Below are positions 29,454 to 33,026 of a DNA stretch of 39,031 bases, piece after piece (positions within the stretch are counted from its first letter, which is position 1; each line of letters begins with the position of its first letter). Below the pieces are notes generated by a model, which was given only the letters and a program-made list of their open reading frames with translations, did not search any database and was not told where the DNA came from. The stretch comes from a virus, in UHGV virus genome UHGV-0112814; one strand, given 5' to 3'. The translations under genes were made by a program, and so were the position numbers.

Positions 29454-30140
29454 ATGGATAAATACGAACAAAGACGACTAAGGCTGATAGAGATAAGAGA
29501 CCGATTCTGTAATGGAAAGGCCTCAGAGTTGGCTCGTCGAATAGAAAGGGAACCATCATACGTTTCCAGAATGCTGTATCCGGAAGGAAAAAGCGGAAAA
29601 AAACGCATTGCTGACGATATGATGGAACTAATTGAAAAATCTTTTAATCTCCCACGCGGATGGATGGACATGCTTGCAGATAGCAAAGTTGGATCTGCAG
29701 ACCATCTTGAGTTTGCGGGTAACGTTCGTGCGGGTTTTGTTCCGGTAATTGGTGAAGCCGTTTTGGGAGTTGATGGCTCAGTGGATATGATTGAATTCAG
29801 ATCCGGTTGGTTAAGCATCTACAGTGGCGATAAAGATGCTTACGGTCTGAAGGTTAAGGGTGACAGCATGTGGCCAAGGATTCAGTCAGGAGAATATGTT
29901 GTTATTGAACCAAATACGCCAGTACATCCAGGTGATGAAGTCTTTGTAAGGACCAAAGATGGTCATAACATGATAAAGATCATGAACAAAACAAGAGACG
30001 GAGACTATCAGTTTAGTAGTATAAACAGCGATCACCGTCCAATCACTCTTCCTGTTGAAGAAGTTGATAAAATGCATTTTGTTTCAGCTATTGTGAAACA
30101 CACTAGGTACGTAGACCAGGACGATCTGCCAAAATTTTGA
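29454..30140 (+). CDS. cI: CI-type prophage repressor with C-terminal S24 (LexA-like) autopeptidase domain
   Basis: 228 aa; C-terminal GDSMWPRI ... GDEVFVR ... IKI is a LexA/S24 Ser-Lys dyad pattern; divergent from cro. Confidence 0.9.
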   Translation: MDKYEQRRLRLIEIRDRFCNGKASELARRIEREPSYVSRMLYPEGKSGKKRIADDMMELIEKSFNLPRGWMDMLADSKVGSADHLEFAGNVRAGFVPVIGEAVLGVDGSVDMIEFRSGWLSIYSGDKDAYGLKVKGDSMWPRIQSGEYVVIEPNTPVHPGDEVFVRTKDGHNMIKIMNKTRDGDYQFSSINSDHRPITLPVEEVDKMHFVSAIVKHTRYVDQDDLPKF

Positions 30141-30451
30141 GGATAAAGCAGCAAATGTTTATACCAGGTATAGTGGTCGCTGTTGTAATCATCTGCTTCA
30201 TATGGGCAAAGTTATCTCCTGTAAGCTCTAAGCATACAGCTGAACTCATGAAGAAGAAGCATCTTATACATGAGGCAGAAACGATAATTAAGAAGTTCAA
30301 AGGCATGTCATATGACGACATGTCATCAGATCAGATTGCTATGTATAAATGCGCCATTGAGCGTCTTGACCACTTAAACGGACTCAAACCCAAACACACC
30401 CCGGTAGAATCAAAATTGCCGCAATGGCCAAGCAATCCAAATAGCTTCTGA
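30137..30451 (+). CDS. Small membrane-anchored protein co-transcribed with cI (candidate lysogen-expressed exclusion function)
   Basis: 104 aa; N-terminal TM helix MFIPGIVVAVVIICFIWA; start overlaps the cI stop; followed by a strong terminator. Confidence 0.6.
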   Translation: MRIKQQMFIPGIVVAVVIICFIWAKLSPVSSKHTAELMKKKHLIHEAETIIKKFKGMSYDDMSSDQIAMYKCAIERLDHLNGLKPKHTPVESKLPQWPSNPNSF

Positions 30452-30462
30452 CATCTCCTTTC

Positions 30463-30486
30463 AGCCCGCAAAGCGGGCTTTTTTAT
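30463..30486 (+). terminator. Intrinsic terminator ending the cI operon
   Basis: agcccgc-aaa-gcgggct perfect stem followed by ttttttata. Confidence 0.75.
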
Positions 30487-30548
30487 ATCAATCCAAAAAA
30501 TTAATTACCTGAAAATTCAAACAGGTAAACTCTCACACCAATTTTATT

Positions 30549-30585
30549 TACCTGCAGGTATAGACAACAGTTTTACCTGCAGGTA
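30549..30585. promoter_or_regulatory. oL: two perfect TACCTGCAGGTA operators (30549..30560, 30574..30585) overlapping pL
   Basis: Same 12-bp palindrome as in oR, centre-to-centre spacing 25 bp. Confidence 0.6.
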
Positions 30586-30589
30586 TATT
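30561..30589 (+). promoter_or_regulatory. pL promoter (-35 tagaca, -10 tatatt), predicted +1 near 30597
   Basis: 17-bp spacing; downstream leader atcagcaggacgcac... matches the lambda pL transcript start. Confidence 0.55.
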
Positions 30590-30630
30590 TTAAGCCATCA
30601 GCAGGACGCACTAACCACCATGAAGGTGAT

Positions 30631-30660
30631 GCTCTTAAAAATTAAGCCCTGAAGAAGGGC
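30631..30660 (+). promoter_or_regulatory. nutL (boxA gctcttaaa, boxB gccctgaagaagggc at 30646..30660)
   Basis: gctcttaaaaattaagccctgaagaagggcagca matches lambda nutL. Confidence 0.85.
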
Positions 30661-30858
30661 AGCATTCAAAGCAGAAGTCTTTTGGATTGGATGAATGCGC
30701 AGGCTGATGCTCGACCAATGTATAAACAGCGCTCATGGCAAGCAGTAACCAATCTGCGCCTCAAGACAGCGTCACTGGTAGTGCGGGCGCTCTAACCAGT
30801 AAGCCGGAGTTCAGCGCCGGCCATCCAATCACCAAAGCTAACTGACAGGAGAATCCAG

Positions 30859-31185
30859 ATGGATGCACAAACACGCCGCCGCGAACGTCGCGCAGAGAAA
30901 CAGGCTCAATGGAAAGCAGCAAATCCCCTGTTGGTTGGGGTAAGCGCAAAACCAGTTAACCGCCCTATTCTCTCGCTGAATCGCAAACCGAAATCACGAG
31001 TAGAAAGCGCACTGAATCCGATAGACCTTACGGTGCTGGCTGAATACCACGAACAGATTGAAAGCAACCTGCAACGTATTGAGCGCAAGAATCAGCGCAC
31101 ATGGTACAGCAAGCCACGCAGTGAAATGGGTGTGACTTGTGTTGGTCGCCATAAAACGAAGGGCAAATCCATCGCATTAATCTGA
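30859..31185 (+). CDS. N: Antiterminator N (lambda N)
   Basis: MDAQTRRRERRAEKQAQWKAANPLLVGVSAKPVNRPILSLNRKPKSRVESALNPIDLTVLAEYH ... is lambda N, including the Arg-rich boxB-binding motif. Confidence 0.95.
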   Translation: MDAQTRRRERRAEKQAQWKAANPLLVGVSAKPVNRPILSLNRKPKSRVESALNPIDLTVLAEYHEQIESNLQRIERKNQRTWYSKPRSEMGVTCVGRHKTKGKSIALI

Positions 31186-31193
31186 GGTGGCCC

Positions 31194-31295
31194 ATGAAGA
31201 ACAGCATCAAGTGCCCGGTATGCGGTCGTGACTTCGATCCACGCACTCCGGTCTGCCACATCAGCAAGTATCACCAGTCAGCGAAGAACTGCTAG
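31194..31295 (+). CDS. Small Cys-rich (zinc-ribbon-like) ORF just downstream of N
   Basis: Own translation MKNSIKCPVCGRDFDPRTPVCHISKYHQSAKNC; RBS gaggtgg; below track cutoff. Confidence 0.3.
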   Translation: MKNSIKCPVCGRDFDPRTPVCHISKYHQSAKNC

Positions 31296-31354
31296 CTGGA
31301 GAAGATACGCGATGCCCGGCGGCAATATTTCAAAGTAACAGCGAGTGAGGTTCG

Positions 31355-31696
31355 GTGATGGAAAATAAAACGGCTAACGGGATGTACGTACTGCGTGGTG
31401 AGCTGAAAAAGGGACTGATAGCGGAGCTGGTAAAGGCATACGACCAGCTGACTCAGGAGTCAGAAAAATTAAAGATCCTCGGACTCAGGTATAACACCCC
31501 TCGACGCATTGTTTATGGCTTTATGTATGAGGTTGCAGCATTAACCGTCAAGGAAATTATGTTTAAAACTGAGGGTGGCTTTTACATCCCACAGGATGAC
31601 TTCGAATCGAGCGACGATATCGATTCATTAGCCAAAGAGATCATCGATGTAATTGACTGTAATGGCGCATTCCTTGAGCGCCTTCTTAAGGAGTAG
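31355..31696 (+). CDS. Hypothetical early-left protein (acidic C-terminus)
   Basis: 113-aa ORF with no recognisable motif; first sizeable gene after N. Confidence 0.55.
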   Translation: MMENKTANGMYVLRGELKKGLIAELVKAYDQLTQESEKLKILGLRYNTPRRIVYGFMYEVAALTVKEIMFKTEGGFYIPQDDFESSDDIDSLAKEIIDVIDCNGAFLERLLKE

Positions 31697-31697
31697 C

Positions 31698-31836
31698 CAT
31701 GAAAAAACTGTATGAAAAACTCCCGTTCGTAGTGCAGGGGGTCATTTTGGGTCTGCTTATCACTGCGGCCATTCTTCTGTCTACCCCGCCAGTCGTCATG
31801 TTTCTTCGTTGGTGGTTCAGAGTTTGGGGTGTCTGA
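31698..31836 (+). CDS. Small hydrophobic membrane peptide (46 aa), translationally coupled to the upstream gene
   Basis: Own translation MKKLYEKLPFVVQGVILGLLITAAILLSTPPVVMFLRWWFRVWGV; strong aaggag RBS; ATG 2 nt after the upstream stop. Confidence 0.4.
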
Positions 31837-31911
31837 TCGGCGCAAGCATTACGCACAGAACGAATCGAGCGGGTCGAGTGGCCTGCGGTGAATAAACAAA
31901 GGGGTGAGGGT

Positions 31912-32094
31912 ATGGAAAATTTGGACAATGAACTGAAAAGAGTAGTTCAGGAACTGGCCAATGAAGAAGGCATCAGTTTTGCCGATGCCGTGGACGTTTC
32001 GATTAAGACGCTTCGTTACGAAATTCAGCACAGAAAGTCTTTTAATGGGTCGCCTGACCCCGATGGAGGCGCATCAGGAGTAGAGGTACGCTGA
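31912..32094 (+). CDS. Hypothetical small protein
   Basis: ORF-track 31888..32094; internal ATG at 31912 (MENLDNELK) preferred. Confidence 0.4.
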   Translation: MENLDNELKRVVQELANEEGISFADAVDVSIKTLRYEIQHRKSFNGSPDPDGGASGVEVR

Positions 32095-32233
32095 CCAAAT
32101 ATCGAAGCGGCAAACAAAAATCGCTGGGGTTTGACGATTGGTGTAACTGGATAGATACGGAACTTGGTGGGATAAATAACAGGTAACTTAAGCGTATTTA
32201 CTTTCGCAGCAAACCACTTATTTGAGGTGATAT

Positions 32234-32683
32234 ATGGAAGAACAAGCAAACAAGATTCTCGTAGAACTACTGCAAAAAGCCAGTAATGGAATAGACGCGG
32301 CTGTTTCATTCAGCCAGGCACAGATTCCTGATGTTGTTCATCAGTTGCTGCTATGGAATATGGTTGACAGTCTGATTAAAACATTAATGGCCATTCTAAC
32401 AATCCCACTGGTTTTCTGGTTTATGAAGAAGCAGTGCCAAAGAGTTGAGACAGGTAAAATCGGTGATGAAGGATATTCATGGGAGAAAGGAAATCCCAAA
32501 TACATGCCGACAATGGTTTGGGATAGCAAAGGTGATATTAATCTTCTTATCATGCCATTGGTTGTAGTTTTGACTCTGTGGGGGATTTTTATTATTGGTG
32601 TAGTAACCAATATGACTTGGTTAAAAATTTGGCTGGCCCCAAAGCTTTACCTTATCGAATATGCAGCATCATTGGTTAAGTAA
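32234..32683 (+). CDS. Two-TM membrane protein, moron-like (candidate superinfection exclusion/abortive infection)
   Basis: 149 aa with two hydrophobic segments (LIKTLMAILTIPLVFWFM; INLLIMPLVVVLTLWGIFIIGVV); preceded by a 139-bp gap with a possible promoter and followed by a terminator. Confidence 0.6.
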   Translation: MEEQANKILVELLQKASNGIDAAVSFSQAQIPDVVHQLLLWNMVDSLIKTLMAILTIPLVFWFMKKQCQRVETGKIGDEGYSWEKGNPKYMPTMVWDSKGDINLLIMPLVVVLTLWGIFIIGVVTNMTWLKIWLAPKLYLIEYAASLVK

Positions 32684-32688
32684 TTTCA

Positions 32689-32712
32689 GGCCGCATAGTC
32701 GGCCTTTATTTT
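32689..32712 (+). terminator. Intrinsic terminator after the membrane-protein moron
   Basis: ggccg-catagt-cggcc stem followed by tttatttt. Confidence 0.5.
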
Positions 32713-32729
32713 GGGCATAAACAACAGAG

Positions 32730-33026
32730 GTGAATATGAAATATACGCCAGGTCCATGGAAGTGGTGGACAAGTAACAGCTTCCTGCGATTAAGCAGCCA
32801 GGCTACAGGTAAAGATGGTGGAGTAATTGACTCTTATGTGATGCGTGATGGTCATCCTTCACTGCGCGTTAGCAAAGAAGATATGGCTCTAATAGCTGCA
32901 GCTCCAGATTTACTCGAAGCTCTGCAAGATTTGCTTATTCGTGTCGCTGATGATGAAGAGTATGGGCCTGAACATGCAATTACTCGGGCTCGCGCAGCAA
33001 TCAGTAAGGCTCTTGGGGAGGAGTGA
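32730..33026 (+). CDS. Hypothetical protein
   Basis: 98-aa ORF; stop overlaps the next start. Confidence 0.5.
   Translation: MNMKYTPGPWKWWTSNSFLRLSSQATGKDGGVIDSYVMRDGHPSLRVSKEDMALIAAAPDLLEALQDLLIRVADDEEYGPEHAITRARAAISKALGEE

Follow-up and report, generated by a model that had tools for sequence, protein, structure and literature searches.

UHGV-0112814 is the genome of a P22-like temperate podovirus, whose structural genes share 94-96% identity with their counterparts in CUS-3, Sf101, Kapi1, and Klebsiella phage phiKp_30. This study concerns three small open reading frames (ORFs), here called ORF-A, ORF-B, and ORF-C, that follow the antiterminator gene N within a stretch of 39,031 nucleotides (nt) of this DNA (the window). 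Reading along the + strand, one encounters a cI-like repressor gene, a 104-amino-acid (aa) ORF with an intrinsic terminator, a pL-like promoter, N, A, B, and C (Table 1), and, further downstream, a gene encoding RecT. An earlier note, made from the letters of the sequence, had described A, B, and C as a compact cassette made up of a 33-aa zinc-ribbon peptide, a 113-aa protein with an acidic C-terminus, and a tightly coupled 46-aa membrane peptide, the last two of them possibly an anti-defence or toxin-like pair. All three ORFs do lie where it placed them, on the + strand directly after N. They are, however, a gene truncated by a nonsense mutation, an orphan, and a gene under purifying selection, and they are distributed among related phages as separate modules.

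Table 1. Features of the region around ORF-A, ORF-B, and ORF-C (positions are those of the window)
Feature	Position	Strand	Remarks
ORF-A as found in the window, 33-aa N-terminal fragment	31194..31295	+	keeps putative zinc ligands C7, C10, H22, H27
Full ORF-A frame, 54 codons plus TGA	31194..31358	+	intact in relatives; C2H2-like, phrog_20899
Amber codon TAG (GAG, Glu34, in relatives)	31293..31295	+	alignment with related loci
ORF-B, 112 aa, predicted all-helical orphan with acidic C-terminal half	31358..31696	+	ATG start
ORF-C, 45-aa single-pass membrane peptide	31699..31836	+	transmembrane segment at about residues 10-28
G5 run in ORF-C, indel hot spot	31737..31741	+	G4, G6, and G6+GGGG alleles
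21-nt unit duplicated in frame in the 52-aa allele of ORF-C (ITAAILL-INAAILL)	31756..31776	+	lengthens the transmembrane segment
ORF-B module, 364 nt	31334..31697	+	12 nt (CAGGATCGCATC) instead in A-C loci L023 and L024
Left CGGCG microhomology	31317..31321		flanks the 521-bp segment with B and C that sets the window apart from A-only loci (L005-L008)
Right CGGCG microhomology	31838..31842		bounds the 521-bp B+C segment relative to A-only loci
Leftover 3' end of the A-only allele (KHYAQNESSGSSGLR*)	31844..31891	+	behind ORF-C, not joined to ORF-A
N antiterminator gene, 108 aa	30859..31185	+	Pfam N36, E 1.6e-26; phrog_271, E 6e-23; lambda-type
pL-like promoter	30561-30589	+	consensus scan
cI-like repressor gene	29454-30140	+	Peptidase_S24

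ORF-A begins almost on the end of N: the TGA of N (31183-31185) overlaps the GAGG (31184-31187) that forms the Shine-Dalgarno (SD) sequence of ORF-A. The 33-aa product ascribed to it is a fragment of a longer gene. All four of the closest public copies have GAG where the window has TAG, and beyond the amber codon the frame of the window stays open for a further 21 codons; its TGA (31356-31358) and the ATG of ORF-B have one A in common (TGATG). The site is readable in 22 of the related loci (numbered here L001, L002, and so on), counting the window itself. ORF-A is an intact 54-aa frame in 19 of them, and the amber appears in the remaining three: the window, L013 (a gut-metagenome scaffold), and L038 (a metagenome contig). 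These three all carry the Phe10 allele of ORF-C and so represent one lineage. There are no tRNA genes in the window, hence no amber suppressor borne by the phage.

The product of the 54-aa frame matches the hidden Markov model of phrog_20899, a family of unknown function, with E 2.6e-7 over profile positions 10-51, while the 33-aa fragment reaches only E 1.4e-3. The best-scoring member of the family that was found is phiKp30_030 of Klebsiella phage phiKp_30, where again the gene comes first after N (in that case an N of the P22-gene-24 type) in a P22-like phage. The two proteins share the pattern CX2CX11HX4H and the EL..IRD..R helix that follows it. They differ in length (97 aa against 54 aa), in their core, which is 37-45% identical, and in the interruption of the window's copy at codon 34. 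The same range of identity holds for the homologues of ORF-A in general, which keep the ligands and the matching position; the gene stands first after N in prophages of Superficieibacter, Leclercia, and Yokenella, behind different types of N. The four putative ligands are invariant among the homologues, including the phiKp_30 protein at 37% identity, and two further cysteines, C21 and C33, are not conserved. Conservation covers residues 1-44. The tail that follows DARR varies from locus to locus and marks a recombination boundary.

The spacing of the putative ligands resembles that of classical C2H2 fingers (zf-C2H2, zf-Di19), but ORF-A would have just a single finger, and its scores fall short of the gathering thresholds of Pfam: E 1.2e-4 and 22.7 bits for zf-Di19 (cut-off 27.5), and E 1.4e-4 and 22.1 bits for Rad50_zn_hook (cut-off 24.3). 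A match to zf-C2H2 was obtained only with the phiKp_30 homologue, at 14 bits (cut-off 25.2). A Rad50 hook is further disfavored by the six residues that precede the CxxC of ORF-A, which leave no room for an N-terminal coiled-coil arm. A sequence search of the PDB gave generic likeness only, to a consensus C2H2 finger (E 6e-5 summed over repeats) and to the Rad50 hook. An AlphaFold2 model of the homologue P0007 has a beta hairpin at residues 5-14 and a helix at residues 30-51, with low confidence (mean predicted local distance difference test score, pLDDT, of 57.9). According to this model, the amber would remove the conserved helix, including ELEKIRDARR, and leave the four ligands in place. 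Judged by its sequence pattern, then, ORF-A would encode a single C2H2-like zinc-finger protein of 54-58 aa, spread across enterobacterial lambdoid prophages. The CxxC motif of the supposed zinc-ribbon peptide is genuine, but the peptide is what remains of a C2H2-like gene, one that, with its helix cut away at codon 34, is probably inactive in this phage lineage.

ORF-B starts at an ATG that lies 7 nt after GAGG (31347-31350), and the resulting 112-aa form is the one called by both Prodigal and the annotation pipeline of NCBI (PGAP). The count of 113 aa arises from taking the GTG at 31355 as the start. The protein is acidic toward its C-terminus, as the earlier note had it: the N-terminal half carries a charge of +4 and the C-terminal half a net charge of -9. 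In the searches it stands nearly alone. Pfam, PHROGs, NCBIfam, and PADLOC hold no match to it, an indexed search detected, among 5.8 billion clusters, copies at least 99% identical and nothing else, and an exhaustive phmmer search of 1.84 billion representatives gave only ORF-B itself and a spurious eukaryotic repeat protein (P0012). A single-sequence AlphaFold2 model is all-helical and of low confidence (pLDDT 53.5); when this model was compared by Foldseek with viral models, the best E-value was 1.2. Neither this model nor that of the ORF-A homologue is good enough for a fold to be assigned. The exact protein is found on 360 contigs and one variant on 289, mostly in E. coli and in a few cases in Salmonella. 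Measured against the codon usage of the phage itself, its frame reaches +0.375 bits per codon, the best score in the neighborhood, and the other five frames are negative.

ORF-C is 45 aa long, one residue shorter than had been claimed. Its predicted transmembrane (TM) segment, with a Kyte-Doolittle value of 2.41, bears out the description of a membrane peptide. Translation would start from a strong SD sequence, AAGGAG at 31688-31693, which lies within the last codons of ORF-B and 5 nt before the ATG of ORF-C; the stop of ORF-B and the start of ORF-C are 2 nt apart. As with ORF-B, which the earlier note had likewise called unrecognisable, searches of Pfam, PHROGs, NCBIfam, and PADLOC assigned ORF-C to no family. 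Yet ORF-C, by comparison with ORF-B, has diverged alleles, 75-80% identical in DNA and 78-84% in protein, and from these its nature can be judged. The differences between the window and L021 are distributed 7/3/28 over codon positions 1, 2, and 3. Synonymous sites are saturated, dN is 0.08-0.14, and the ratio of nonsynonymous to synonymous divergence (dN/dS), where computable, is 0.05-0.15. Variation is found in the TM segment, which also accepts a duplication of 7 residues, and none in the tail, STPPxVMFLRWWFxVWGV. The third-position pattern, together with the fact that the frame of ORF-C is the sole frame open in all alleles, identifies ORF-C as a protein-coding gene under strong purifying selection.

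The family is a narrow one. No relatives were found in 185,579 species-representative genomes, and in IMG/VR there were three contigs only. Within public assemblies the allele with the lengthened TM segment (52 aa) is the most frequent, on 248 contigs as against 129 and 19 for the two 45-aa forms. The possibility that ORF-C might be ydaG or ydaF of the Rac prophage of K-12 was rejected upon translation.

The G5 run of ORF-C is unstable. Six of the 23 loci that carry A, B, and C in order are frameshifted there, by G6 in L001, L003, and L037, by G4 in L004 and L031, and by G6+GGGG in L002; the other 17 encode an intact peptide, either the 45-aa form or the 52-aa allele. Two of the G-run alleles recur in independent records, and the loci that carry frameshifts are otherwise about 99% identical. 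By comparison, runs of A5 and A6 in ORF-B and ORF-C do not vary. Neutral decay within prophages, selection against C, and systematic error in sequencing are the candidate causes of the indels. In four complete genomes the G run interrupts the frame, which had raised the thought that ORF-C is spurious. The idea was dropped in view of the 17 intact loci and the diverged alleles.

One might go further and suppose that some of these ORFs are not genes at all: that they are chance frames, that ORF-B is noncoding filler, or that the segment acts as an RNA. After all, PGAP never annotates ORF-C in the four complete genomes and annotates ORF-A in just one of them, ORF-B has no relatives, and ORF-A is interrupted in the window and has a slightly negative codon-usage score (-0.14). 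Each ORF has its own answer to this. For ORF-C it is the decisive third-position pattern and the single frame open in every allele; for ORF-B, the codon-usage score, a well-placed SD sequence, and 112 codons uninterrupted in all 23 loci; for ORF-A, the distant homologues with their ligands and position preserved. As for RNA, Rfam has no match in 30300-32900, and the predicted fold energy of 31180-31360 is no better than that of shuffled sequences (z -0.19). It is thus very improbable that the ORFs are not genes, and we take ORF-B, on such grounds, to be a real orphan gene, either young or fast-evolved.

How the three are distributed is telling. Their sequences are absent from 50,697 phage records with the exception of one unannotated genome, Wanchaivirus PDP110P2, and the segment is present in 3 of 5,426 complete E. 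coli genomes. Where related loci are found, they fall into five arrangements. The order A-B-C occurs in the window and 21 other loci. ORF-A occurs alone in L005-L008, where its tail reads KHYAQNESSGSSGLR and is followed by the gene for Nmad5 or by other genes. ORF-A is joined directly to ORF-C in L023 and L024, the TGA of A overlapping the ATG of C (ATGA). ORF-C is found with neither of the others in L021 and L022, immediately beside a divergent sieB, and in another context in L020. Finally, in L027, an ORF-B that is 99% identical to that of the window precedes a foreign ORF-C, an allele 75% identical from the ATG of C onward.

These five arrangements imply three separate modules, of which B is the one placed between A and C. 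The module of ORF-B brings along its own SD sequence and, in its last codons, that of ORF-C. Since L027 switches to another allele of ORF-C precisely at its ATG, the border of B and C must be a recombination joint. Mosaicism at gene boundaries is usual in lambdoid phages, and here it argues against a co-adapted cassette, the term under which the three had been described.

The distribution bears also upon the suggestion that B and C form a functional pair, either a small membrane toxin (C) with its neutralizer (B) or a two-component anti-defence device. The closeness of the two genes and the location of the SD sequence of C inside B would suit such a pair, as would the fact that B is followed by C in 23 of 23 loci. 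So too would the frameshifts: C is disrupted in six loci and B in none, a pattern to be expected if C is harmful and B protective. Moreover, C is built as type I toxins (Ldr, Hok, TisB) generally are, with about 45 aa, one TM segment, and an end rich in Trp and Arg. Against this, C does without B in at least the five loci L020-L024, where it is coupled to A, stands beside sieB, or lies in another context, so that the two are not inherited jointly, and the joint in L027 shows that their border recombines. Unlike the type I toxins, ORF-C matches no family, neither of its strands bears a promoter-like site, and Rfam finds no RNA there, antisense or other. To judge from its surroundings it would be expressed within an operon, from a strong SD sequence, as part of the lytic program. 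Neither B nor C matches any model of a toxin, an antitoxin, a defence system, or an anti-restriction protein in the databases named above, the segment contains no promoter-like site, and genes that are expressed only in the lytic cycle and are repressed in the lysogen would need no antidote. A functional pair is therefore quite improbable, and an obligate one is contradicted by the loci that have C without B.

If not a cassette, what are the three genes? Their surroundings offer a guide. They lie on the strand of N, in the interval between N and the cIII/kil/recombination genes, with no intervening terminator, and in relatives other genes take their place, just as is the case for the accessory genes of lambdoid pL operons. 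By consensus scan, no terminator-like site occurs on the + strand from 30480 until 32688, hence none between N and the ORFs, and in 30300-33000 no promoter-like site was detected besides pL. From gene order and this lack of predicted signals, we infer that A, B, and C belong to the N-dependent early-left transcript. The interval is a variable slot, which relatives fill with Ral, Nmad5, HNH endonucleases, or SieB, and which in P22 holds sieB/esc, ral, orf78, orf87, and gene 17. The argument of the earlier note from position, that lambdoid phages often carry anti-restriction and host-takeover genes right after N, thus holds.

The likeness to the N-to-cIII genes of lambda and P22 extends to operon, interval, small size, and pattern of replacement, but not to sequence: BLASTP detected no similarity of A, B, or C to the P22 genes ral, orf78, orf87, 17, sieB, c3, kil, and arf. 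ORF-B, in particular, does not appear to be an anti-restriction protein of the DNA-mimic sort (Ocr, ArdA) or a Ral. Its overall net charge is only -5 and its isoelectric point 4.84, and the comparison with P22 Ral gave E 0.32. In size and in its place within the pL operon, ORF-C is like Kil and CIII, lambdoid peptides of about 45-55 aa whose targets are host proteins (FtsZ, FtsH) and whose genes lie further downstream in relatives. Kil and CIII do not span the membrane, however, and have no similarity to ORF-C.

Perhaps ORF-C is instead an early membrane effector of conflict between phages, providing superinfection exclusion or escape from SieB or RexB, with A and B its unrelated neighbors. 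ORF-C adjoins a divergently oriented sieB in L021 and L022, the corresponding interval of P22 holds both sieB/esc and gene 17, which are exclusion-related, and ORF-C, with its invariant tail, is under strong purifying selection. The association, though, is one of position only, and no sieB is recognisable in the window. A BLASTP match of ORF-C to the TM region of SieB (E 0.01, obtained with no composition correction) reflects hydrophobic bias, and there is no meaningful similarity to Esc or SieB. Exclusion genes, besides, are usually expressed from the prophage, while ORF-C lies in an operon that is repressed there. On balance this role for ORF-C is unlikely.

What we consider likely is that A, B, and C are small accessory genes of the N-antiterminated pL operon, each separate from the others, brought together by recombination at gene boundaries, and not a functional unit. 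All three would be transcribed from pL early in lytic growth and may serve dispensable functions directed at the host or at competitors, by analogy with ral, gene 17, and sieB/esc in the P22 interval. A would be a binder with a zinc finger, disabled in the present lineage. B would be a lineage-restricted orphan placed exactly between A and C, starting on the stop of A and carrying the ribosome-binding site of C. C would be an older, independently mobile gene, whose product may insert into the inner membrane and contact a membrane target through its tail. The Trp/Arg-rich tail, invariant as it is, is likely the working part of the peptide.

Several points weigh against this account or limit it. 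ORF-B always has ORF-C downstream of it and may depend upon it. The restriction of frameshifts to ORF-C would not be expected if all three were neutral cargo. ORF-B has no diverged relatives, and its polymorphic codons among 17 copies, 2 synonymous and 5 nonsynonymous, are uninformative as to selection. The presence or absence of B and C might be due either to insertion or to microhomology-mediated deletion in other lineages. Searches by homology, fold, and literature gave no lead to a function for A, B, or C; no study of these genes was found.

Some of this would be accommodated by a more adventurous idea. ORF-C might represent an uncharacterised family of early inner-membrane peptides of phages, its invariant tail binding or disturbing a machine of the host membrane or disarming a membrane-bound abortive-infection protein (SieB, for example), and ORF-B might be a very young orphan that was recruited between A and C as a counter-defence or as a modulator of C. 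Such a recruitment would account for the repeated frameshifts of C at the G5 run and for the intact B of every locus. We regard the combination as speculative and rather improbable.

The main value of these results lies in the correction of annotation: what had been read as a zinc-ribbon peptide comes from a broken gene, and in place of a cassette there are three independent modules. The 45-aa ORF-C is a real, selected gene that PGAP has overlooked, and, if followed up, it would enlarge the short list of early lambdoid peptides (Kil and CIII) by a conserved small membrane protein. ORF-B provides a clean case of an orphan, lying between two genes that elsewhere are translationally coupled, present on several hundred enterobacterial contigs, and with no detectable ancestry. 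What is seen is the ordinary shuffling of phage genes, and uncharacterised accessory genes of the lambdoid early-left operon are a known kind of feature. Neither ORF-B nor ORF-C is likely to overturn current views.

Upstream of the three genes, the 104-aa ORF (30137-30451, + strand) runs from the stop of the cI-like repressor gene, with which it overlaps, to a strong intrinsic terminator (30463-30479), the position that rexAB would occupy. Its product, a member of phrog_10450 (E 8e-55, function unknown), has a hydrophobic segment near its N-terminus. Relatives have quite other genes here, for proteins of 345-348 aa, for a HigB toxin along with two ORFs, or for a DUF1828 protein, and the position gives the impression of a slot for cargo or defence genes expressed from the prophage. 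In two loci a gene for a 138-aa HNH_3 endonuclease (4554-4970 in L005 and 2455-2871 in L022) separates the repressor gene from ORF-A or sieB. It occupies the place where N would be expected, and no N was called in either locus.

Downstream, directly after ORF-C, there is an acidic ORF of 60 aa (31912-32094, + strand; isoelectric point 4.61), annotated as hypothetical in relatives, found on several hundred contigs, and matching no family. Further on lies the gene for a predicted membrane protein of 149 aa (32234-32683, + strand), a match to phrog_3054 (E 3e-64, function unknown), with a terminator-like hairpin after it (32688-32705). Several E. coli relatives and a Leclercia prophage (L033) encode a homologue of the 149-aa protein at the matching place. 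Beyond the hairpin, 32730-33026 (+ strand) encodes a homologue of P22 orf78, whose equivalent in L013 belongs to Pfam Phage_P22_Y8K6. The window thus retains part of the early-left set of P22 downstream of the variable block.

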